Assembly (NCBI GenBank): GCA_031409335.1
Contig: JANNWY010000301.1
Span: 1 to 29,734, forward strand
Direction: 5' to 3'
From: Chthoniobacteraceae bacterium
Lineage (GTDB): Bacteria; Verrucomicrobiota; Verrucomicrobiia; Chthoniobacterales; Chthoniobacteraceae
Length of the DNA: 29,734 nt
The position numbers and the translations under genes were made by a program. The notes beneath the pieces are model-generated. The model saw nothing but the letters and a program-made list of their open reading frames with translations, had not been told where the DNA came from and ran no database searches. Below are positions 18,540-29,734 of the stretch, in pieces (within the stretch, counting starts at the first letter, position 1; each line of letters starts with the position of its first letter).

Positions 18540-19907
18540 ATGCCTAAAGTCTATCTCAAAACCTACGGCTGCCAGATGAACGAACGCGATTCCGAGCAGG
18601 TTTCGCGGATGCTCATCGCGCGCGGGTACGAGATGACGCCGGAGGCGGCGGGCGCGGATGTGGTGCTGCTGAATACGTGCTCGGTGCGCGATCTCGCCGA
18701 GCAAAAGGCGCTGGGGAAAATGGGGCTGCTCGGTCGCCTGCGCGCGAACAAACCGGAGATGGTTTTCGGTTTCCTCGGCTGCATGGCGCAGTCGCGCGGC
18801 GATGAACTCGTCCGCGACATCGGCCATGTCGATCTCGTCGTCGGCACCCAGAAATTTCACAAGGTCGCCGACTACGTGGATGAACTGGTGCAGCGCAAAA
18901 TCGCGATGCGCGAGCGGCTGATGGACGACGCGCGTTTTTCCATCGTCGATGTGGACGAGGAAGCGGGATCGCAGGAGACGATCCGCGAGCATGTGCTGAA
19001 GGAGAAGCAGGCCACCGCGTTCGTCTCGATCATGCAGGGCTGCAATATGCACTGCACGTTTTGCATTGTGCCGAGCACGCGCGGCGCGGAGCGTTCGCGG
19101 CGGATCGAGGAGATCGTGGCCGAAGTGCGGACGCTCGTGGAACGCGGGGTGAAAGAAGTGACCTTGCTCGGCCAGATCGTGAATCTTTTCGGCCGCCACG
19201 AGTTCGCGGCGCGCGATGGAAAATCGCCGTTCGTGCAATTGCTCGAAGCCGTGCATTCAGTCGAAGGTTTGCGCCGCCTGCGCTTCACCTCGCCGCATCC
19301 GATCGGTTTCAAACAAGACCTCATCGACGCCTTCGCCCGCCTGCCAAAGCTGATGCCGCACGTCCATCTCCCGATGCAATCCGGCAGCGACCGGATGCTC
19401 AAAGCGATGCATCGCACCTACACCGCGGAAAAATATTTCGCCCTCACCGAAAAGCTGCGCGCCGCCCGCCCCGACATCGCGCTGACCACGGATGTGATCG
19501 TCGGCTTTCCCGGAGAAACGGAGGAAGACCACGCCGCGACTTGCGCGATGCTGGAGCGCGTCGGCTTCGACAACGCCTTCGTCTTCCGCTACTCGAAACG
19601 CCGCGACACCCCCGCCGCCGAACTCGGCGAACAACTCCCCGAGAGCGTGAAGGAATCGCGCAACCAAGACGTGCTCCGCATCATCGACCGTTGGGCGATT
19701 GCAAAAGGCGAAGCCCTCGTCGGCCAGCGCGTCGAGATCCTCTGCGAAGGCCTCAGCAAGACCAACGAAGAGCGCCTCATGGGCCGCTCGCCCGGAAACA
19801 AGATCGTGATTTTCGAAGGCGGCGAACGCCACCTCGGCGAAGTCTTCGACGTGCAAATCGAGCGGTCGAGCGGCTTCAGCCTCTACGGCGATCCGGCGGT
19901 GCTGTAG
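18540..19907 (+). CDS. miaB: tRNA-2-methylthio-N6-dimethylallyladenosine synthase MiaB
   Basis: TYGCQMNERDSE, NTCSVR..AEQK, radical-SAM GCNMHCTFCIVP, RFTSPHP, HLPMQSGSD, TDVIVGFPGET, YSKR..TPAA, C-terminal TRAM domain. Confidence 0.97.
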   Translation: MPKVYLKTYGCQMNERDSEQVSRMLIARGYEMTPEAAGADVVLLNTCSVRDLAEQKALGKMGLLGRLRANKPEMVFGFLGCMAQSRGDELVRDIGHVDLVVGTQKFHKVADYVDELVQRKIAMRERLMDDARFSIVDVDEEAGSQETIREHVLKEKQATAFVSIMQGCNMHCTFCIVPSTRGAERSRRIEEIVAEVRTLVERGVKEVTLLGQIVNLFGRHEFAARDGKSPFVQLLEAVHSVEGLRRLRFTSPHPIGFKQDLIDAFARLPKLMPHVHLPMQSGSDRMLKAMHRTYTAEKYFALTEKLRAARPDIALTTDVIVGFPGETEEDHAATCAMLERVGFDNAFVFRYSKRRDTPAAELGEQLPESVKESRNQDVLRIIDRWAIAKGEALVGQRVEILCEGLSKTNEERLMGRSPGNKIVIFEGGERHLGEVFDVQIERSSGFSLYGDPAVL

Positions 19908-20003
19908 CACTGGCGATCGAATCAAACCGCGACGCTCTGCCGCGGCGACGCTCGTCGAATGCAGGTGCTTTACTCCGAAAGACCTCCCGGCTTTGTTTCG
20001 TCA

Positions 20004-22610
20004 ATGGAGGTTCCGTTCCCGCAAGAATTTTGGGCGAAGACAATCGACGGCGACAAGCCCGGCATCTCCGTGCGCGACCATTGTTTGAACGTCGGTTGTG
20101 TAGCGGAGGCTCTCCTCGCCGTTTTGCCGGAACGAGTGCGCGCGCTCCTGCCAGCAGGCGCAGTGACTTTGGCGGCATTGCATGATTTGGGGAAGATCAC
20201 CGTAGGGTTTCAGGCAAAGTGCTTGTTGTGGCTTCAGCGCGATCGCTTGCCGGAATTCTCTTCCGGTGAGGTTGCGCTCTCGGTTTCTGATCACGCTTTG
20301 GTCAGTCAGATCTTTTTGCAAAAGCTGCCCGACTCTTCTCCGTTCCGGCTTTGGGCAGTGGCCGTAGGAGCGCATCACGGCAGGCCGAAAGGAAAGATCG
20401 CCCGGCTCAATACTCCCGAACCCCTCGCGGAATGGGCGCAGGAGAATCGGCTGCACGTCTTCGATGAACTCAAGCTGGTGTTCGGTCCGCTGCCGACCAC
20501 GCCGCCGCTGCCGACCCTCGCTCTTGCCGACCTGTGGCTGCTTGCCGGGCTCATCTCGGTCGCGGATTGGATCGGGTCGAATGAAGTGTGGTTTTCTCCC
20601 GAGCATGGGCTGCTCCCGGAAGCCGCGCGACAACAGGCCCGCGACGCTCTCCGCCAAATCGGCTGGCCGGGTGGCCGGTTGCGTCAAACGAGCTTCGCGG
20701 CAGCCTTTTCGAGTATGCCCGATTCGGCGTTTCATGCGAATCCCCTGCAACAGGCCGTGGCGGACGTGGCCCATGTTCCGGGCGTTATCATCGTGGAGGG
20801 GCCGATGGGTTGCGGCAAAACCGAAGCGGCCCTCTTCGCCGCCCAGCAACTCATCGCCTTGGGATACCAGCAGGGCATCTATTTCGCGCTGCCCACACAG
20901 GTCACGAGCAATCGGATTCACAAGCGAATCGAGCATTTTCTCCGCAGTACCCTCGAGGACGAGGCGGCGCTCCGGCTGGCCCACGGCAGTGCGTGGTTGG
21001 AAGATGATTTCGATCTCCGCCTGCGTCCGGCCTATCCGCCGGACCTGCCGGACGAGCGGGAGGAAATCCTTGGCAGCCTGCGTGAAGCCCGTTCGTGGTT
21101 CGGCTCTGCGAAGCACGCGCTCCTCGCCCCGTATGGCGTCGGCACCGTCGATCAGGCACTCCAGTCCGTGGTCGCCGTGAAGCATTTCTTTGTGCGCCGC
21201 CTCGCCCTCGCCGGCAAGGTCATCATCCTCGATGAGATTCATTCGTACGACATTTATACCGGTACACTCATCACCGCGTTGATCCGCGAGCTGGTCGCGC
21301 TCCGCTGCACCGTCATCGTGCTCAGTGCCACGCTCACCGCGGAGCGCCGCCGTGAATTGCTGGCCGCCGCGGGAAGCACCGAGACCGCTGCTCCGACGGC
21401 TTACCCTTTGGTCACAACCGGCGGTGGAGAAGGAGGGGAATGCCGGCACGTCAGCCCGGAGTGGTCGGCTCATCGTCGCATCGCTCTTCGGCCAGGGATG
21501 ATTTCCGAGGGGGAAACCATGCGCGAACTCATCGAGCGCGCGGAGAACGGTCAGCATGTCCTCTGGATCCGCAACACCGTCGTGGAAGCACAGGACGCCT
21601 TCCGCGCCGTATCGGGTGCCGTCTGCGAAGGCCAAGTGCGTGTCGGACTTCTGCACAGTCGCTTTCCTTTTCAACGTCGCGCCGAATTGGAGGAAGACTG
21701 GCTCGAAGGCCTCGGACCGAACCGTTCCGCCGACGGTCCCGGCAGCATCCTCATTGCCACTCAAGTCGTGGAGCAAAGCGTGGACATTGATCTCGATTTC
21801 ATCGTCTCCGATCTCGCACCGACGGACATGCTGCTCCAGCGTGTCGGACGTCTCTGGCGACACGAGCGGCCGCAGCGGCGGGCAGCTGCGCCCGAGTTTT
21901 GGATTCGCCTGCCGGAATTGGCCGCAAACTCGGATGCAACCGCACTGAAAAAGGCCCTGGGCCGCAGCGCCCGGGTTTATGCGCCCTACGTCCTGCTCCG
22001 CACGGCGGCTGTTTGGAGTGGGAAGAAAGAACTGCATTTGCCAGCCGATATTCGCTCATTGCTCGAAGCGACTTACGCCGAGCCTAGCGAGGATGAACCC
22101 GAAGCATGGCGCCAACTCCACGCGGATTTGGAGCGCGAAAAGGCGATGCTGGCCGCCAACGCGGAGGCTGCCACCTTGGTGCTCGGACGCCCCATGCTTG
22201 CGGACGAAGAAGAAATCCTCACTCGCCGCAAAGGCGCCCCCACCACACCGCTCATGCTCTTGCGATCTCTTGCCATAGGATCGTCCGGCTCCATGATCCT
22301 CGTGGCCCCCGATGGTTCGCGGGCCGAAATCAGCGAACACGAATGGCGCAAAGCCTCCGCGCGCTTTATCCACCACTGGCTCGTGCGGGCACCGCGCTGG
22401 ATGCTCCCCGCCGCTGCTCCCCAGCCTCGCTGGCTCACGCTCCATGGGCCGTCCCGCGCCATCGTGGCCATCGTCCGCGACGATGGCCGCTGCGTTTTCG
22501 GCGAGGAAGTTTCCCACGTGACCTACGACCCGCGACTCGGCATTTTCGCCGGGTGCCCCGCAACGCCCGCTCCGCAATGGAAAGACGACGACGATGAATT
22601 TGACGATTGA
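20004..22610 (+). CDS. cas3: CRISPR-associated HD nuclease/helicase Cas3
   Basis: FWAK...DHCLNV, LAALHDLGK, AHHG, SVADWIGS (HD domain); GPMGCGKTEAAL (Walker A), DEIH, LSATL, LHSRF, TQVVEQSVDID, QRVGRLWRH. Start is 20004 or 19959. Confidence 0.96.
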   Translation: MEVPFPQEFWAKTIDGDKPGISVRDHCLNVGCVAEALLAVLPERVRALLPAGAVTLAALHDLGKITVGFQAKCLLWLQRDRLPEFSSGEVALSVSDHALVSQIFLQKLPDSSPFRLWAVAVGAHHGRPKGKIARLNTPEPLAEWAQENRLHVFDELKLVFGPLPTTPPLPTLALADLWLLAGLISVADWIGSNEVWFSPEHGLLPEAARQQARDALRQIGWPGGRLRQTSFAAAFSSMPDSAFHANPLQQAVADVAHVPGVIIVEGPMGCGKTEAALFAAQQLIALGYQQGIYFALPTQVTSNRIHKRIEHFLRSTLEDEAALRLAHGSAWLEDDFDLRLRPAYPPDLPDEREEILGSLREARSWFGSAKHALLAPYGVGTVDQALQSVVAVKHFFVRRLALAGKVIILDEIHSYDIYTGTLITALIRELVALRCTVIVLSATLTAERRRELLAAAGSTETAAPTAYPLVTTGGGEGGECRHVSPEWSAHRRIALRPGMISEGETMRELIERAENGQHVLWIRNTVVEAQDAFRAVSGAVCEGQVRVGLLHSRFPFQRRAELEEDWLEGLGPNRSADGPGSILIATQVVEQSVDIDLDFIVSDLAPTDMLLQRVGRLWRHERPQRRAAAPEFWIRLPELAANSDATALKKALGRSARVYAPYVLLRTAAVWSGKKELHLPADIRSLLEATYAEPSEDEPEAWRQLHADLEREKAMLAANAEAATLVLGRPMLADEEEILTRRKGAPTTPLMLLRSLAIGSSGSMILVAPDGSRAEISEHEWRKASARFIHHWLVRAPRWMLPAAAPQPRWLTLHGPSRAIVAIVRDDGRCVFGEEVSHVTYDPRLGIFAGCPATPAPQWKDDDDEFDD

Positions 22611-24072
22611 TCCCTGGATACCCGCGCTCCGTGCCGATGGCCGCCGCGAACTCTTTAGCCTCCGCGATCTCTTCGCGCAGGCGCACGAACTGCGCGACCT
22701 CGCCGTGAAACCCCACGAGCGCATCGCCCTCATGCGCCTGCTGCTCTGTATCACGCAGGCCGCGCTCGACGGCCCGGCGGATGAGGACGAGTGGCAGGAT
22801 TGCCAATCGCTCATCCAGCCTCGCGTCGCGGAGTATCTCGAGAAGTGGAACGCGGCTTTTGAGTTGTTCGGTGAAGGGCGAAGGTTTCTTCAGTTTTCAC
22901 AGCTTCAATCCGGCAAGGAGGCCGATGAAGGCAACGCCGCCACGAAGCTCGATCTGGCCCTGGCGACCGGCAACAACTCGACCCTCTTCGACAATCTCGC
23001 GGGTGAAGATCGAACCCTTCAGTCTGCGCGCTCGGCGATCAATCTCCTGACCTTTCAATGTTTCGCCCCCGGTGGACGCATCGGTGTCGCGAAGTGGAAT
23101 GGCAAAGAAACGGCGGGCAAGGGTTCGAGCAATCACGCGCCCTGCACGCCTTCGAGCATGGTTCACGGCTTCTTGCTGCGCAGAACGCTTCTTGCAACGC
23201 TCCGCCAGAATCTAATTACGCGGGAGGCCGTGGCCGATGCCTACGGCGCGAACCGCTGGGGCGAGCCGGTCTGGGAAATGCCAGTCGAAAACGCCAGCGA
23301 CAAGAACGCGACCATGAATGCCGCGCTGACCTTTCTCGGGCGGCAGGTGCCGTTGAGCCGGGCGATTCGGTTGAACGACGATGGCCTTTCCGTCATCCTC
23401 GCCAACGGACTTGATTACCCGATTTTTCCGGCGTTCCGCGAAGCCACCGCGACCGTCATCAAGCGGAAGGAGGAACTGGCCCTCCTTCCCGCTTCGACCA
23501 GCCGTAGCCTTTGGCGGCAATTAGCGGCGGTGTCCGTTCAGCGTCGCGCCAGTGCCGATGGCGCGAGTGGCCCGCTGGCATTGACCCATGAGACCGCCGC
23601 CGCAGAGATCACTCTCTGGGTTGGCGCTTTGGTCACGGATAAAGCCAAAATCGAGGACGTGGTGGAATCGACCTATTCGCTCCCCACGGGGATGTTTTCC
23701 GAGTTTGGCCGCGCCGCTTACGAAAAGGGCGTGGCCTACGCGGAGGAGCGCGAGGGTGTGCTCATTCAGTCTGTGAAGGTGTATGCCTCAGCGCTCAAGG
23801 TCGCGTCTCCCGCTTACGACCGCGCCCGACAGCACTTCTGGACGCGCGTCGAGCAGCACCTGTCCGCGCTCTTCGATCTGGCGCGCAATATCGAACTCGC
23901 CACGGACCTTCCCAACTGCCCGTGGGGCCGCGCCGTGCAGGCGGCGGCCTTCGACGCCTACGAGCAATCCTGTCCGCGCCAGACGCCGCGTCAGATCGAG
24001 GCTTACGCGCATGGCCTGCGCAAGCTCACTTTCCGTCCCAAGAACCCGCAACCAACCGCCATTGCCCCATGA
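22594..24072 (+). CDS. cas8e: Type I-E Cascade large subunit Cas8e (Cse1/CasA)
   Basis: MNLTIDPWIP, ALMRLLLCI.QAAL.GP, FELFG...FLQ, GNNSTLFD, WEMP, SLWRQL; overlaps the cas3 end. Confidence 0.92.
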   Translation: MNLTIDPWIPALRADGRRELFSLRDLFAQAHELRDLAVKPHERIALMRLLLCITQAALDGPADEDEWQDCQSLIQPRVAEYLEKWNAAFELFGEGRRFLQFSQLQSGKEADEGNAATKLDLALATGNNSTLFDNLAGEDRTLQSARSAINLLTFQCFAPGGRIGVAKWNGKETAGKGSSNHAPCTPSSMVHGFLLRRTLLATLRQNLITREAVADAYGANRWGEPVWEMPVENASDKNATMNAALTFLGRQVPLSRAIRLNDDGLSVILANGLDYPIFPAFREATATVIKRKEELALLPASTSRSLWRQLAAVSVQRRASADGASGPLALTHETAAAEITLWVGALVTDKAKIEDVVESTYSLPTGMFSEFGRAAYEKGVAYAEEREGVLIQSVKVYASALKVASPAYDRARQHFWTRVEQHLSALFDLARNIELATDLPNCPWGRAVQAAAFDAYEQSCPRQTPRQIEAYAHGLRKLTFRPKNPQPTAIAP

Positions 24073-24611
24073 GTGAATCAAAACGCACCCCAAAAGAACG
24101 CGCCGCCGATTTCGTCGCCGCGCTGCGCCGTGTCCGCGACGACCGCGGCAAACTCGCCGCGCTCCGCCGCGGACTTTCCGACAACCCGCGAATGCACGTC
24201 GATGCGTGGCCCGTAGTCGCCAGCCTCGGCGGCGACATCGGCCAGCCGGTGTTCGTCTCCATCGCCGCGCTTTTTGCCACCCATCCCGAAGAGTCCAACG
24301 CGCGCAACCTCGGTGAAACCTGCCGGCGAATCGCGCAAGGCGACGGCAAGGACATTGCCGAAAGCTTCGAGCGGCGTTTCCGCCGGCTGCTGGCCTGCGG
24401 GGAAGTGACCGACGTGATTGCTCAACTCCGCGCATGGGTCCGCCTCGCCGCAAGCAAGGGAGTCGGTATGAACTACGAGGGCCTCTTTGCCGATCTGTGG
24501 AATTGGCCGTGGTATGCCGAAAACATCCGCGTCCAATGGGCACGCGCCTTTTGGCAATCCGGCAGCGCACCGACCGAAACCAGCGAACCCGCAACCGTCG
24601 CGCAGCCATGA
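24069..24611 (+). CDS. cse2: Type I-E small subunit Cas11 (Cse2/CasB)
   Basis: DRGKLAALRRGL, IAALFATH, NLGETCRRI, FERRFRRLL, L..DL..W...RVQWARAFW; ATGA-coupled to cas8e. Confidence 0.93.
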   Translation: MSESKRTPKERAADFVAALRRVRDDRGKLAALRRGLSDNPRMHVDAWPVVASLGGDIGQPVFVSIAALFATHPEESNARNLGETCRRIAQGDGKDIAESFERRFRRLLACGEVTDVIAQLRAWVRLAASKGVGMNYEGLFADLWNWPWYAENIRVQWARAFWQSGSAPTETSEPATVAQP

Positions 24612-25273
24612 GCCCACTCGCTCCCTTCAGCCTCGCCACAGTCGCACTGCATCTCACGCAGATCCTCGTCCCCTACGAAGACGCCGTGCGCCTCCTGAAA
24701 ATCCGGGACAGCTACGACTGGCATCAGCGGGTCTGGCAGGCCTTTGGCGGACGCGACGGCGAGGTCCGCGATTTCCTCATCCGCGTGGACCGCAAGGAGG
24801 AAGCCTACCGCGTGCTCATCCTCTCGCGCTCCGTCCCGAAGAAGCCCGACTGGTGCCCGACCGCCTGCTTCGGCACGAAGACCATTCCCGACGATTACTT
24901 TCAGCACGCGCGCTACCGCTTCAGCCTGCTGGCCAATCCCACGAGGAAACTGCGCGCGGAAAATCCCGATGGTACGCGGAAGAAAAATGGCCGGCGTGCG
25001 CCGATCGTGCAACGCGCGGAACTCATCGCGTGGCTGCAACGCAAAGCGGAGGCCGGCGGCTTTTCCGTGGAGGTCGACTCGTTGCGCACCATCCCGCGCG
25101 GACGCGAATTTTTCCACAAACCCGGCGCGAACGGCACGCACACCGCCGTCGAATTTCAGGGCGAACTTACGGTGCGCGACGCGGCGCAATTCCGCGCCAC
25201 CATCGCCGCCGGCATTGGCTCCGCCAAAGCCTTTGGCTTCGGGCTGCTCGCCCTTTCACCGCTTTCGGAATGA
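24608..25273 (+). CDS. cas6e: crRNA-processing endoribonuclease Cas6e (Cse3/CasE)
   Basis: YDWHQRVW, YRFSLLANPT, WLQRKAE..GF, VEFQGELTV.D, Gly-rich loop GIGSAKAFGFGLL. Confidence 0.94.
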   Translation: MSPLAPFSLATVALHLTQILVPYEDAVRLLKIRDSYDWHQRVWQAFGGRDGEVRDFLIRVDRKEEAYRVLILSRSVPKKPDWCPTACFGTKTIPDDYFQHARYRFSLLANPTRKLRAENPDGTRKKNGRRAPIVQRAELIAWLQRKAEAGGFSVEVDSLRTIPRGREFFHKPGANGTHTAVEFQGELTVRDAAQFRATIAAGIGSAKAFGFGLLALSPLSE

Positions 25274-25388: not shown

Positions 25389-26468
25389 ATGCGTCTGATC
25401 GAACTCCACATCCTCCAATCCTTCCCCGTCTCTTGCCTCAATCGCGACGACGTGGGTTCTCCCAAAACCGCCGTCTTTGGCGGTGTCAACCGCGCCCGCC
25501 TCTCCAGCCAATCCCTCAAGCGGGCGATTCGCGAATACGCGCAGGATAACCTGCCCGACGCGCGCTTCGGCGGCGAGCGGACCAAGCTGATCGTTGGCCC
25601 GCTCACCGAGGCTTTGAAAAAGCATGGCGTGACGGATGAAAAGTCTGCCGCCGACCACGCGGCCCACATCGCGGACAAGTTGGCGAAACTCGATGCCAAA
25701 TCCGTGAAGGAAGGCGAGACTCCGCAGGTCGGCACCCTGACCTTTCTCGCGCCGTCGGAGATTGACTCGATCGCGCGCCAGGTCGCGGAATTGGTAAAAG
25801 AGAATCCCAAGTCGAAGGACTACGACAAGAAGCTCGATAAGTTCTGCAAAGCCGCAGGATTGCTCGATGGGGCGGACATCGCGCTCTTTGGCCGCATGGT
25901 CGCGAGCCTGCCTTCGCTCACGCTCGAAGGCGCGGCCATGTTCAGCCACGCCCTTTCCACCCACAAAGCCGACAACGACCTCGATTTCTACTCCGCCGTG
26001 GATGATCGGAAATCGAAGGATGAAGACGCGGGCGCGGGCATGATCGGCACCCTGGAATTCTCTTCCGCCGTTTATTACCGCTACGCCGCGATCAATCTCG
26101 ATCTGCTCGCCGATGAATCCCATCTCGCAAAGCTCTCCGTGGACGATCGCCGGAAAGTCGTGGACGCCTTCATCCGTGCCACGCTTCAGGCAGTGCCGGG
26201 TGCGCGGAAAAATTCCATGAACGCGCACACCCTTCCCGGCGGCGTGCTCGGCACTTTCAAATCCGCGGGCCAGCCCGTGCAACTCAGCAATGCCTTCGAA
26301 GAGCCCGTCCGGCCCAAGTCGGGACTGCTCGCGGAATCCATCGCGCGGATGAAGACCCATCATGAGTCCTTGAAAAGCACTTGGGGCATCACCTGCGACA
26401 CCGAGGTTTTTCTCCCCGACGTGAATCTCAAAGCCTTCTGCGAAGCCCTGACGAAACATGTCCTCTGA
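25389..26468 (+). CDS. cas7: Cascade backbone Cas7 (Cse4/CasC)
   Basis: IELHILQSFPVSCLNRDDVGSPKTAVFGGVNRARLSSQSLKRAIR, DIALFGRMVA, HALSTH, DFYSAVDD, GAGMIG..EFSSAVYYRY, LSNAFEEPV. Confidence 0.97.
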   Translation: MRLIELHILQSFPVSCLNRDDVGSPKTAVFGGVNRARLSSQSLKRAIREYAQDNLPDARFGGERTKLIVGPLTEALKKHGVTDEKSAADHAAHIADKLAKLDAKSVKEGETPQVGTLTFLAPSEIDSIARQVAELVKENPKSKDYDKKLDKFCKAAGLLDGADIALFGRMVASLPSLTLEGAAMFSHALSTHKADNDLDFYSAVDDRKSKDEDAGAGMIGTLEFSSAVYYRYAAINLDLLADESHLAKLSVDDRRKVVDAFIRATLQAVPGARKNSMNAHTLPGGVLGTFKSAGQPVQLSNAFEEPVRPKSGLLAESIARMKTHHESLKSTWGITCDTEVFLPDVNLKAFCEALTKHVL

Positions 26469-27153
26469 GTCGTGCCTGCCTCTGTTCCTCGATGGCCCGC
26501 TGCAATCGTGGGGCCATTCCTCGCGCTTCGAGCGCCGCACCACGGCGCTGCATCCTACCCGCAGCGGCGTCTTCGGCATCATCGCTGCCGCCCTCGGGAT
26601 CGACAAATATGGCGCCGATGAAGCGGCGCAGTTGCAGCGCTTCGCCGAGTTGCGCGTCACCGTCGCCACCTTGCCGCGGCGGGATCGCTGGAGCGAACCG
26701 GTGCCCATTCGACGGCTGGCGGATTACCACACCGTCACTGGCATTCGCCGCGCGAGTGGAAAAGTGGACGCTGACGCCACCGTCCAGACCTACCGGCATT
26801 ACCTCCTCGATGCCCGCTTTGGCATCCTGCTGGAAGGCGACGCCGCTCTTTTGAAAGAAATCGCCAACGCGCTGCATAACCCTCGCTGGGGAATGTGGCT
26901 CGGGCGCAAGTGCTGCCTGCCCGCCAGCCCCATCCTTGCGGCTTCGGTTTCGGATCGAGCGACGGCGTGGGCCGCGTTGCTCCAGCGCGCCGGTTATTCC
27001 GATCAGGAGACTCTCTCGCACTTTGACCACATCATCGAAGTCGCCGCCTCCGAGCCCGGCGCAGACCTGATCGAAGACACCCCGATCGGTTATGGCCACC
27101 CCATCGGCGAACGCCACGCCCCGCGCTGGATTTGCCGCGTGCCTAAATCCTAA
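26458..27153 (+). CDS. cas5: Cascade subunit Cas5e (CasD)
   Basis: LDGPLQSWG..SRFERRTT..HPTRSGVFGIIAAALG, DYHTV, RHYLLDARF, LGRKCCLPASPI. Confidence 0.96.
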   Translation: MSSESCLPLFLDGPLQSWGHSSRFERRTTALHPTRSGVFGIIAAALGIDKYGADEAAQLQRFAELRVTVATLPRRDRWSEPVPIRRLADYHTVTGIRRASGKVDADATVQTYRHYLLDARFGILLEGDAALLKEIANALHNPRWGMWLGRKCCLPASPILAASVSDRATAWAALLQRAGYSDQETLSHFDHIIEVAASEPGADLIEDTPIGYGHPIGERHAPRWICRVPKS

Positions 27154-27162
27154 ATCCTAAAT
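27142..27162 (+). repeat. (CCTAAAT)x3 heptamer repeat spanning the cas5 stop
   Basis: Three perfect copies. Supplies the cas5 TAA (27151-27153) and ends 4 nt before the cas1-fragment GTG. Confidence 0.9.
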
Positions 27163-27166
27163 CGCC

Positions 27167-27430
27167 GTGCCCCTCTTTGAACGTCCCCCGCTCGAAACCC
27201 TCGCCTCCGCCAAGGACCGCTGGACGCCGCTTTACCTCGAACATGGGCGGCTCGAAGTCGATGACTCCAGCGTGAAATGGATCGGGGCCGATGGGCTGCT
27301 CTGCCGCATCCCGGTTGCCACCTTCGCCGAAGGCAACGCCACCCTGCGCGACCAGCCGCTCTCCTTTGCCACGCCGCGCGACTTTTCCCCGCACCGCGTG
27401 AAACGGATCGAAGCCGGACAGCCAGAGTGA
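27167..27430 (+). pseudogene. Chimeric ORF: first 52 codons of cas1 fused in frame to a Cas5e-like C-terminal tail
   Basis: 27167-27322 matches 28214-28369 at 147/156 nt (manual count). The tail FAEGNATLRDQPLSFATPRDFSPHRVKRI aligns by eye with the C-terminus of the local Cas5. Confidence 0.8.
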
Positions 27431-27512
27431 GTGGGCAGGGCATGATACTGCTCCCAGAAGGCTGCGGTCGTCGAACGGTGTTCCGAGGCCAACCGCCGGT
27501 GCAAAACGTCCG

Positions 27513-27541
27513 TTGCCTGATTCGCCGCCGTTCCCTATTCT
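27513..27541 (+). promoter_or_regulatory. Candidate sigma70 promoter of the TA operon (leaderless geometry)
   Basis: TTGCCT-N17-TATTCT, with the antitoxin ATG (27549) 7 nt after the -10 box. Confidence 0.6.
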
Positions 27542-27548
27542 CCGCGTC

Positions 27549-27776
27549 ATGATCACCATCGAAGAAACGCTCGTTGTGGATGAGGAAGGACACGCCGTCA
27601 TCACGCTGCCGCCCTCGGTGAAGCCGGGACGGCATCGGGCGGTGGTGCAGATTGAGGAGGTGGCGGATGCAGCGTCCGCAAAGCCCGCGGCTCCGAAGGC
27701 GGGATGCTTGAAGGGCTTTTGGATGGCGCCGGACTTTGATGCGCCGCTCGAGGAGTTCCGGGAATACATGGAATGA
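27549..27776 (+). CDS. Putative antitoxin (VapB/DUF2281-like C-terminus), 75 aa
   Basis: Beta-hairpin-like N-terminus (TIEETLVVDEEGHAVITLP...PGRHRAVVQIEE) and acidic tail AGCLKGFWMAPDFDAPLEEFREYM typical of PIN-toxin antitoxins. ATGA-coupled to the toxin. Confidence 0.8.
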   Translation: MITIEETLVVDEEGHAVITLPPSVKPGRHRAVVQIEEVADAASAKPAAPKAGCLKGFWMAPDFDAPLEEFREYME

Positions 27777-28159
27777 AGCTGCTGCTCGATACGCACGCGC
27801 TGATTTGGTTTCTGGAGGATGACCCGAAGCTCACCGTGGCGGCGCGGGATGCAATCGAGGATGCGGCGAATGAGCGTTGGGTGAGCACAGCGAGCGGATG
27901 GGAGATGGCGATCAAGTCGCAGATTGGGAAGCTGGTGTTGCCAAGGCCGTTCGAGGTGCTCTTTCCCGGCGCGTTGGAAGCACACGGCTTTTTCATCCTG
28001 CCGATTCAGCCACGGCATTTGCACCGCTATCACTCGCTGCCATTGCATCACCGCGATCCTTTTGACCGGCTCCTCGTCGCGCAGGCACTCGCGGACGGGT
28101 TTGGCGTCGTCGGCAACGATGCGGCATTCGATGCCTACGGCGTGACGCGAATATGGTAG
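27773..28159 (+). CDS. vapC: PIN-domain toxin (VapC family)
   Basis: MKLLLDTHALIWF, VSTASGWEMAIK...GKL, LPLHHRDPFDRLLVAQA, D.AF.AYGV..IW; acidic PIN residues intact. Confidence 0.93.
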   Translation: MKLLLDTHALIWFLEDDPKLTVAARDAIEDAANERWVSTASGWEMAIKSQIGKLVLPRPFEVLFPGALEAHGFFILPIQPRHLHRYHSLPLHHRDPFDRLLVAQALADGFGVVGNDAAFDAYGVTRIW

Positions 28160-28195
28160 CGGCGCAGTTCAGCGCGTGATGGCAGAGCGGGACAT

Positions 28196-28209
28196 TTCAA
28201 ATCCTAAAT
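28196..28209 (+). repeat. Degenerate heptamer pair TTCAAAT-CCTAAAT before cas1
   Basis: Same unit as at 27142 and 29123; ends 4 nt before the cas1 ATG. Confidence 0.7.
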
Positions 28210-28213
28210 TCCG

Positions 28214-29101
28214 ATGCCCCTCTTCGAACGTCCCCCGCTCGAAACCCTCGCCTCCGCCAAGGATCGCTGGACGCCCCTCTACCTCGAACACGGGCGGCTC
28301 GAAGTCGATGACTCCAGCGTGAAATGGATCGGGGCCGATGGGCTGCTCTGCCCCATCCCCGTCGCCACCGTCTCCGCGCTCATCCTCGGCCCCGGCACCA
28401 CCGTCACCCACGCCGCGATGAAGGCCTGCGCGGAATCTAACACGCCGGTCTGCTGGACGGGCGCGGATTGCCTGCGCTTCTACGCCTTCGGCCTCGCGCC
28501 GAATCACACCAACGAAATGCCCCGGCTCCACGCCACCGCCTGGGCCGACAAAAAGCGGCGCACCCAGATCGCCCGCCGCATGTTTCGGATGCGCTTCCCC
28601 GATGTCGATGTGGAAAGCCGCAGCGTGAACGAACTGCGCGGCATGGAAGGGCTGCGCGTCCGGACGCTCTACGGCCAGCTCGGGCTGGAGCATGGCGTGA
28701 CGTGGAAGGGACGGGATTACGACCGGACCAATTTGGACGTGTCCGACCCGATCAACCGCGCCCTCTCCGCGGCCAACGCCAGCCTTTACGCCCTCGTCGC
28801 CGCCGTCGTCTGCTCGCTCGGTTACGTGCCCAGCCTCGGTTTTGTCCACGATGGGGGAACGCTCCCGTTCATCTATGATGTGGCCGACCTCTACAAACAC
28901 CTCACGAGCATCCCCGCCGCGTTCCTCGCCGCCCGGCAGGATCCCGGCAACGATGGCGAACTCGTGCGCACCTTGCTCAAAGAGCGCGTCGAAGAGCAGC
29001 GCATCCTCCAGCGCATCCCGAAGGATTTGGCGGCGCTCTTCGACACCACCGAAGCCGCTCCCGCCTCCGCCACCGATCGCCCGCCCTCCGCCACCGCGTG
29101 A
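28214..29101 (+). CDS. cas1: Type I-E Cas1 integrase
   Basis: PLYLEHGRLEVDD, ALILGPGTTVTHAA, ARRMFRMRF, LRGMEGLRVR, WKGRDYD, INRALSAAN, LGFVHDG, FIYDVADLYK (catalytic E/H/D present). Confidence 0.97.
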   Translation: MPLFERPPLETLASAKDRWTPLYLEHGRLEVDDSSVKWIGADGLLCPIPVATVSALILGPGTTVTHAAMKACAESNTPVCWTGADCLRFYAFGLAPNHTNEMPRLHATAWADKKRRTQIARRMFRMRFPDVDVESRSVNELRGMEGLRVRTLYGQLGLEHGVTWKGRDYDRTNLDVSDPINRALSAANASLYALVAAVVCSLGYVPSLGFVHDGGTLPFIYDVADLYKHLTSIPAAFLAARQDPGNDGELVRTLLKERVEEQRILQRIPKDLAALFDTTEAAPASATDRPPSATA

Positions 29102-29122
29102 TGCGGGCGAGTTCTTTGAAAT

Positions 29123-29143
29123 CCTAAATCCTAAATCCTAAAT
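29123..29143 (+). repeat. (CCTAAAT)x3 heptamer repeat before cas2
   Basis: Three perfect copies preceded by TGAAAT; ends 3 nt before the cas2 ATG. Confidence 0.9.
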
Positions 29144-29146
29144 TCG

Positions 29147-29446
29147 ATGACCGTCATCATCGCCCACGACACCCCGCCCGCCATCCGCGGGATGCTGAAA
29201 CGCTGGTTCATCGAACCGCAGCCGAACGTCTTCGTTGGCACGCTGAACCGGCGGACGCGGGATAAAACGCTGGAATACATCAAGCGGAACGCCACCGGCA
29301 TCGCCCTGCTCATCGTCTCCACGGAAAGCAACTGCCAGGGTTTCAAGATCGAGACGCACGGCGAAGTGCGCCGCCGCGATGCCCGCCTGTCCGGACTCTG
29401 GCTCGTGGCGGAAAAGTGGGTGGATGCGGAGGCGATTCCGTTCTGA
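29147..29446 (+). CDS. cas2: Type I-E Cas2
   Basis: MTVIIAHDTPPAIRGMLKRWFIEPQPNVFVG, QGF.I.THGE.RR....LSGLWL; no DEDDh fusion. Confidence 0.93.
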   Translation: MTVIIAHDTPPAIRGMLKRWFIEPQPNVFVGTLNRRTRDKTLEYIKRNATGIALLIVSTESNCQGFKIETHGEVRRRDARLSGLWLVAEKWVDAEAIPF

Positions 29447-29497: not shown

Positions 29498-29734
29498 GTT
29501 TTCCCCACCCGCGTGGGGATGGTCCGACGCGGCGCATGGGAAGCGGCTGATTGAAGCAGTTTTCCCCACCCGCGTGGGGATGGTCCGAGTCGGAGCCATC
29601 GATGCACGGCAGCGGCTTCGTTTTCCCCACCCGCGTGGGGATGGTCCGGGCTCGATCGGAGCCTTTGTGTGAACGGCGAAGTTTTCCCCACCCGCGTGGG
29701 GATGGTCCGAATGTTTCCACGCCAGACCAAATCG
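29498..29734 (+). CRISPR. Type I-E CRISPR array, truncated by the window edge: 4 identical 29-bp repeats, three 32-bp spacers and one partial spacer
   Basis: GTTTTCCCCACCCGCGTGGGGATGGTCCG at 29498, 29559, 29620 and 29681 (61-bp period); hairpin CCCCAC/GTGGGG. Confidence 0.99.

Follow-up and report, generated by a model that had tools for sequence, protein, structure and literature searches.

Type I-E CRISPR-Cas loci are known to exchange parts of themselves: module exchange has been published for the type I-E system of Escherichia coli (Almendros et al., 2014; PMC3903273), and in situ exchange of adaptation and effector modules is covered by the review of Koonin and Makarova (PMC6452270). Such exchange is usually inferred from discordant trees, as it is in the relevant passages of both sources. 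The locus described here, in which the join itself appears to be preserved, belongs to a Chthoniobacteraceae bacterium (assembly GCA_031409335.1, hereafter G000) and lies on contig JANNWY010000301.1 (C301), the entire 29,734 nt of which form the window analyzed. Between cas5e and cas1 it carries an 87-codon open reading frame (ORF) in which the start of a cas1 gene continues into the end of a second cas5e gene. There is a high probability that two type I-E loci were spliced here by microhomology and that the resulting fusion is inert, and what the locus preserves, on good evidence, is the genuine fossil junction of an already known process, not a new protein. As in the exchanges treated in those passages, the histories of Cascade and of cas1-cas2 differ within one locus and variants of a single subtype have been exchanged, whereas here the junction is visible at base resolution inside cas1, between near-identical cas1 alleles, and the presence of both parents' remnants makes the recombination route testable.

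Two further described phenomena resemble the scar. Homology-facilitated illegitimate recombination (HFIR), in the portions of PMC3240628 that bear on it, proceeds through microhomologies of 3–10 bp with gains of about 1 kb, and most of the recombinants were duplications of 109–950 bp of the homologous target, formed by single crossover of a circle (PMC3240628). The present locus shares with these events a single homologous anchor, a short microhomology at the opposite end and a gain of about 1 kb of foreign DNA; however, classical HFIR deletes resident DNA by the anchor, whereas here the anchor is duplicated, as in the single-crossover class. In the Sulfolobales, according to the pertinent part of PMC4390879, vapBC pairs are interspersed in cas cassettes. 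Here too a PIN-type toxin-antitoxin (TA) pair is found within a cas operon and may help to maintain it, but in this case the operon is a bacterial type I-E operon, the pair is flanked by direct repeats in the space between cas5 and cas1, and the route by which it entered can be seen. Compared with the reference type I-E system (E. coli Cas1, PDB 3nkd/5dlj), the locus has the full gene set and order, 29-nt repeats, 32-nt spacers and the acidic and histidine residues of Cas1 in register; it differs in a Cas1 that has L where the E. coli protein has W170 and a P inside a predicted strand, in an array apparently interrupted by an insertion sequence (IS), and in the additional cas1 stub, cas5 tail and TA pair. 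No paper on a cas1-cas5 fusion scar was found in the open-access literature, as judged by titles and the beginnings of abstracts. The features on either side of the join are as follows:

26458..27153, plus strand: cas5e of the local clade ('A'), intact (TIGR01868; groups with A-type Cas5 in the tree, apart from the P0001 clade)
27167..27322, plus strand: cas1 stub, codons 1–52, with a GTG start (TIGR03638 positions 2–45), in the normal cas1 position 13 nt past cas5 and encoding the consensus amino acids
27314..27322, plus strand: junction microhomology (VAT codons), common to cas1 and B-type cas5
27323..27430, plus strand: tail of a B-clade cas5e, last 35 codons and stop (D58A and R76H in chimera numbering)
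27549..27776, plus strand: vapB-like antitoxin gene (DUF2281; PF10047 above cut-off, NF050009 at 37 bits, under its cut-off of 60)
27773..28159, plus strand: vapC-like PIN toxin gene (PF01850, E 9e-13)
28214..29101, plus strand: full-length cas1e (TIGR03638, 309 bits), with R47P (28353) and W174L (codon 28733–28735)
29147..29446, plus strand: cas2e (TIGR01873), with no private or conserved-site changes
29498..29734, plus strand: start of the CRISPR array, four repeats of 29 nt with 32-nt spacers

The ORF at 27167–27430 encodes 87 amino acids, and the cas1 stub reads in frame into the tail, as had been stated in a first-pass annotation of this DNA made from its letters alone. The same annotation described 27167–27322 as a repeat of the first 52 codons of cas1 with nine differences, seven of them synonymous, and comparison with 28214–28369 (156 nt) returns exactly this count: GTG against ATG at the start, seven synonymous third positions, and CGC against CCC (R/P) at codon 47. 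A repeat search extends the similarity to 27152–27329 against 28199–28376 at 92% identity. The R/P change is thus present as described, but the departure lies in the full-length cas1, which has P47; the stub keeps R47, the family consensus (84/109).

The tail belongs to a Cas5e of another lineage, as the first-pass annotation had claimed, though not on the evidence it gave. Its alignment of the tail with the local Cas5 is at chance level, since the score of 29 was attained by 92 of 1000 shuffles and is not significant. A database search with residues 48–87 instead returned three matches among 23 candidates, all of them full-length 221-aa PF09704 proteins with 84–92% identity (E 4e-13 to 3e-11), and these three, P0001 included, share only about 42% identity with the local Cas5. 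A profile of eight B-clade Cas5 proteins, from which the four closest relatives had been excluded, matches the tail with an E-value of 2e-14, compared with 0.003 for a profile of 16 A-clade proteins, and a quick tree of 45 Cas5 rows places the relatives of the tail in clade 'B' (support 100) and the Cas5 of the window in clade 'A' (support 97). The C-terminal motif of the PF09704 family is present while the whole Cas5 domain is absent, the match covering only the last 38 of 221 residues; the 35-aa tail itself gave no match in Pfam or NCBIfam and none in a PDB search. A second Cas5 C-terminus was observed in the window only, that is, in 1 of 139 records. DNA similarity to the B-type cas5 genes of two related loci, L016 and L019, starts at 27314, the preceding 60 nt matching at only 15–19 positions, which locates the join at the VAT codons, where it had first been proposed. 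At this point the cas5 of L016 and nt 148–156 of the full cas1 are identical at 9/9 positions (14/17 with flanks) and both encode VAT in frame; the microhomology comprises 6 exact nt within the window and 9 nt when the L016 allele is used. The junction pattern occurred in none of the viral contigs searched.

That the two cas1 starts do not represent a collapsed assembly of two strains is indicated by a 348-nt contig, 27276–27623, that spans the junction without any difference in both X1 and X2 (runs on two samples from a single study, which may be the source samples), and by P0092, an ENA record and the second member of the fusion's cluster, which has the same junction with other substitutions. 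An assembly artefact, in which two strains or a small circle were collapsed via the cas1 repeat, would find some footing in the facts that the run contigs break at identical stretches of 38 and 61 nt, so that full phasing of the 5′ and 3′ alleles of the stub rests on the original assembly, that other strains with an R47 cas1 occur in the same runs, and that depth at the junction in X2 is 6.0 against 10–11 in its neighbors. It is nonetheless barely credible, as the stub-specific alleles and the tail lie on one contig in either run, X1 shows even depth (5.3–9.4 over the eight listed pieces), and the ENA data contain not only the same fusion with different substitutions but also a member of the vapC cluster on a contig of the same size, 1,754 nt. 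The least credible alternative is a local duplication of the cas1 start followed by neutral decay. It would accommodate the observation that the two starts differ from each other at 8 positions in nt 10–156 but from any of the 18 relatives compared at 16 or more; it leaves the foreign Cas5 tail unexplained, and the stub, with 39 synonymous and 114 non-synonymous sites and a dS of about 0.2, carries seven synonymous changes and no amino-acid change against the consensus, where about 10 would be expected under neutrality (P about 4e-5 to 4e-4). This last comparison bears out the earlier proposal that the two starts evolved as separate functional alleles and not as a decaying duplicate. Also considered was a history in which a stretch within the B locus was first duplicated in tandem and the Cascade then cleanly exchanged; two synonymous differences within 10 nt of the junction appear to disfavor it.

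Because the two starts are closest to each other (94% identical at the DNA level), both parents had almost identical cas1 genes, and the deep divergence of Cascades A and B predates the scar. The same cas1 clade is found with several Cascade types: the closest of the 18 cas1 genes compared follows the B-type cas5 of L019 (85.8% nucleotide identity), that of L106, with a third Cascade type, stands at 85.5%, and those of A-type loci reach up to 81.7%. In intact loci such as that of genome G086 the A-type Cascade directly adjoins cas1, whereas in the window the cas1 stub and the second, full start flank vapBC, the 5′ end of cas1 being duplicated around the TA pair. Three histories fit this sequence, namely entry of the tail, vapBC and cas1, replacement of a B-type by an A-type Cascade, and a deletion fusing tandem loci. 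The evidence on which half is the incomer points in both directions, and import of the tail, vapBC and cas1 is favored. We lean, by a modest degree, toward a scar formed by import of a piece 1,047 bp or more in length, containing the cas5 tail, vapBC and the cas1 start, through the resident cas1, a history that needs only the homology observed. A second I-E locus would have donated this piece, one end of which would join by homologous recombination within the 94%-identical cas1 alleles and the other at the microhomology. Alternatively, a 1,047-bp circle may have closed at the donor's two microhomologies, which in a B locus with this TA pair would form direct repeats 1,047 bp apart, and integrated by a single crossover. 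The circle fits at least as well as linear HFIR because the anchor is duplicated and not deleted. Of the features of HFIR, the homologous anchor is present, a microhomology within 3–10 nt is present though not rare by chance, and the fate of resident DNA depends on direction: the anchor was duplicated if the right piece entered, while entry of the left half would imply that about 7 kb were deleted. By the favored route, Cascade A would have stayed intact, cas1 would have been replaced partly or wholly, like for like since the two starts are near-identical alleles, and the TA pair, likely the net gain, could counter loss of the repeat-flanked unit; the full cas1 would afterwards have acquired R47P and W174L. 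The first-pass annotation had proposed that a foreign segment with the cas5 end, the TA pair, cas1, cas2 and possibly the array recombined into the resident cas1. Its splice of two I-E loci stands, but the foreign origin it gave to the whole adaptation module and the array does not follow, as the crossover may lie inside cas1 or Cascade may be the incomer.

Several observations weigh against import through cas1. None of the loci recovered is a parent with near-identical alleles, and an intact cas5B-vapBC-cas1 arrangement was found in none of 401 order-level genomes; the cas1 of L019 has frame breaks, and a locus of a third Cascade type is nearly as close. The VapC of P0095 has R99W and has lost its stop, so TA addiction is not strictly maintained. 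Of the 131 records that match the Cas1 N-terminus just two have a separate cas1 stub, which makes such stubs rare, and the 9-nt match is unexceptional, the cas5 of L016 and cas1 sharing one 10-mer and four 9-mers. In host codon adaptation cas1 and cas2 lie in the 96th–99th percentile and the Cascade genes in the 20th–82nd, and in the sections of the review concerned, the adaptation module is usually fixed while effectors are shuffled (PMC6452270); together these favor Cascade as the incomer. The corresponding history starts from a resident B locus (cas5B-vapBC-cas1-cas2-array), whose Cascade gave way to an A-type one carrying its cas1 start, via a miaB-anchored fragment or a deletion between tandem loci; it is possible but distinctly less probable than import. 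It draws on the host-like codon use of the tail as well as of cas1 and cas2, on a step in GC content at third codon positions (GC3) between the halves of +0.116 against 0.034 ± 0.031, larger than in all 14 intact A-type loci, on the closest cas1 sitting in a B-type locus, on a Cascade nearly devoid of conserved-site changes (cse1 L251Q only), unlike cas1, and on effector shuffling around a fixed adaptation module as the norm reported in that part of PMC6452270. Yet it requires either that A and B Cascades both stood beside miaB or that two whole loci lay in tandem, while miaB followed by cas3 within 1.5 kb occurs in 0 of 29 other family genomes and miaB beside 0 of 80 cas1 loci; clean recombination would have been open to a fragment that arrived with 156 nt of 94%-identical cas1 at its end, and an earlier clean Cascade swap would explain the codon and tree signals equally. 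Codon usage and GC3 mark the halves as different without indicating which is native. Synteny at miaB gave no direction, since the genes downstream differ in congeners.

The first-pass annotation also suggested that the 87-aa chimera might interfere with Cas1-Cas2 assembly, a role that now looks improbable, because different invariant residues have changed in its two known copies and the stub stops in the middle of the predicted beta domain. Between these copies 4 of the 87 residues are different, and two of the four are at invariant sites. The fusion in the window has D58A and R76H, at positions where R is found in 128/128 aligned Cas5 and D in 12/12 B-clade members; P0092 keeps both residues but has L24V and G27R, with G in 109/109 Cas1. 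The chimera looks dead since each known copy broke a different invariant residue, and from the comparison of sequences and the structure prediction (pLDDT 79.8) the fusion protein is likely an inert, decaying scar. In that prediction the stub has four strands without the rest of the beta domain or the catalytic helices; the chimera covers positions 2–45 of the 269 of TIGR03638 and would be missing helices 101–275. It is very unlikely that the fusion is kept as a small protein with affinity for Cas1, Cas2 or Cascade and a damping effect on spacer acquisition. The ORF stays in frame and sits in the operon where cas1 normally would, neither known copy is interrupted by a stop or a frameshift, and the stub is without amino-acid change against the consensus; the frame, however, needs no selection, because at the microhomology VAT is the in-frame reading in either gene, the start is GTG, and the stub ends ahead of predicted strands 55–58 and 79–81 and helix 66–74. 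Nor is there another Cas1-Cas5 fusion among 79 short Cas1-like matches: a Cas5 tail occurs only in the window's own protein, many of the others being truncated or joined to unrelated tails. Four of the 79 have Cas2-like tails (one a Pfam match below its cut-off, three by eye), and two run into arrays. The proteins in which a Cas1 N-terminus is joined in frame to a Cas2-like C-terminus or enters a CRISPR array are P0019, P0048, P0067, P0080, P0012 and P0045; fusions of this kind are deletion scars that removed the adaptation module, and 5′ stubs of cas1 are common debris in this clade.

The full-length cas1 may itself be impaired, a point on which the first-pass annotation is silent, R47P and W174L having gone unremarked there. 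It has six residues, these two included, that are absent from all six full-length relatives of its cluster; private residues in those relatives number 0–3 in five and 24 in the most distant. R47P falls in a predicted strand (45–48), and W174L alters a column with W in 109/109 relatives. Both sites are covered by run contigs that show 0 differences: for W174L these come from X1 and X2, for P47 from X2. E145, H212 and D225, which we take to be the catalytic residues, are invariant and intact. W174 aligns with W170 of E. coli, to which we presume a functional role, no passage on it having been found in the literature. That residue lies five positions from Y165, which according to the pertinent passage of PMC8390960 contacts the complement of the protospacer adjacent motif (PAM). 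Since 35 of 110 Cas1 rows carry at least one conserved-site change, a single such change is not proof; in Cas2 and Cascade there is one only, cse1 L251Q. As the full cas1 would have gained both R47P and W174L since the scar formed, spacer acquisition is predicted, from these substitutions, to be reduced. Self-targeting does not account for the changes in cas1, since a full-length match at another place in the genome was found for none of the 19 spacers. For annotation, the fusion should be treated as debris, and even a full-length cas1 that scores above its cut-off may be impaired.

The order of genes is miaB, cas3, cse1, cse2, cas6e, cas7, cas5e, the 87-codon ORF, vapB-vapC, cas1, cas2 and the start of the array, and all eight cas genes of type I-E (cas3, cse1, cse2, cas6e, cas7, cas5e, cas1e and cas2e) pass curated cut-offs. 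To the left of the features already given lie:

18540..19907, plus strand: miaB, the left flank of the CRISPR locus (TIGR01574, 458 bits)
19959..22610, plus strand: cas3 (HD and helicase), of the A-type interference half (TIGR01587 and TIGR01596 above cut-off; the full-length model PRK09694 scores below its own cut-off)
22594–24072, plus strand: cse1, A-type Cascade (NCBIfam I-E model above cut-off)
24069–24611, plus strand: cse2, A-type Cascade (NCBIfam I-E model above cut-off)
24608–25273, plus strand: cas6e, A-type Cascade (NCBIfam I-E model above cut-off)
25389–26468, plus strand: cas7, A-type Cascade (NCBIfam I-E model above cut-off)

The stretch cse1-cse2-cas6e-cas7 is 64–78% identical to the intact operon of G086. 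Apart from the start of cas1, the assembly has each cas gene once, and tblastn detected no second cas operon in the genome. The stop of vapB overlaps the start of vapC (ATGA), and a PIN toxin with a small upstream antitoxin is the layout of a VapBC type II TA system. A promoter scan returned one weak site only, before cas2. A motif, AAATCCTAAAT, often in tandem, precedes both cas1 starts and cas2 (27146–27162, 28200 and 29120–29143), and its 10-nt core has 20 occurrences in the genome, frequently right before start codons. Among the related cas1 loci with titles, the majority are from Verrucomicrobiota.

The scar also suggests how TA pairs get into the cas5-cas1 gap. In a scan of 148 records (147 loci, some redundant, and the window), 131 of which have a Cas1 N-terminal match, a separate cas1 stub was present in the window and in L056 only, the third double match, L173, being one split gene. 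The order in L056 (474–1100) is cas5, a cas1 stub of 27 decayed codons, an antitoxin gene of the Phd type, a truncated partner of which only the start remains, and a full cas1. More than 200 nt separate cas5 from cas1 in 22 of 97 loci; among 76 non-redundant near-clade loci the figure is 11, the window included, and nine of the other ten large-gap near-clade loci hold TA-associated Pfam genes, some below cut-off or with one partner only. In the pairs L107/L110 and L111/L136 the block of insert, cas1 and cas2 is 82% identical over about 2 kb, while the Cascades match in short patches only; these shared blocks fit movement as a unit, and common descent followed by Cascade replacement fits too. 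We tentatively suggest, while rating it as doubtful, that cas1 serves as a landing pad at which a TA pair with a cas1 start, or TA-cas1-cas2 units, move between unrelated Cascades by cas1-anchored recombination, without an integrase and possibly as circles of kilobase size, driving apparent swaps of the adaptation module; with the same reserve, the window and L056 would be the cases that kept the old cas1 start. The same vapBC, at 70–82% amino-acid identity, occurs in six genomes of one related genus (L191–L196), with no comparable cas genes in the flanks fetched. In L016 (2632–2747), what comes after the B-type cas5 is the beginning of a nucleotidyltransferase antitoxin gene that is also present at the cas5-cas1 gap of L106 (89% nucleotide identity) and L168. 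Stubs of a window-like cas3 (58–79%) lie just upstream of a more distant cas3 in L106 (274–1168), L107 (734–1075) and L180 (4792–5028), which suggests that they are scars of Cascade replacement.

Behind cas2, the 29-nt repeats and 19 complete 32-nt spacers were extracted from C301 together with a second contig, C251, onto which, going by the repeats, the array would continue past the end of an IS. This IS end (C251:1–140; IS3-like by reading of its translation and common to four contig ends) precedes the array, apparently within spacer 4, and one array spacer is duplicated in tandem. The last, partial repeat on C251 passes straight into a degenerate copy of the 3′ end of miaB (C251:1182–1373; window 19728–19907), so placed that the whole cas locus appears to lie between two miaB ends. 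The copy is 83% identical over 198 nt, and its last 60 miaB codons (C251:1194–1373) show 11 synonymous and 10 non-synonymous codon differences; at synonymous sites it is about equally far from G000, G001 and G002 (11, 13 and 13). No integrase was seen in the parts of the locus examined. A short duplicate of the miaB 3′ end is also found in another member of the family, about 600 nt downstream of miaB (L082:851–925).

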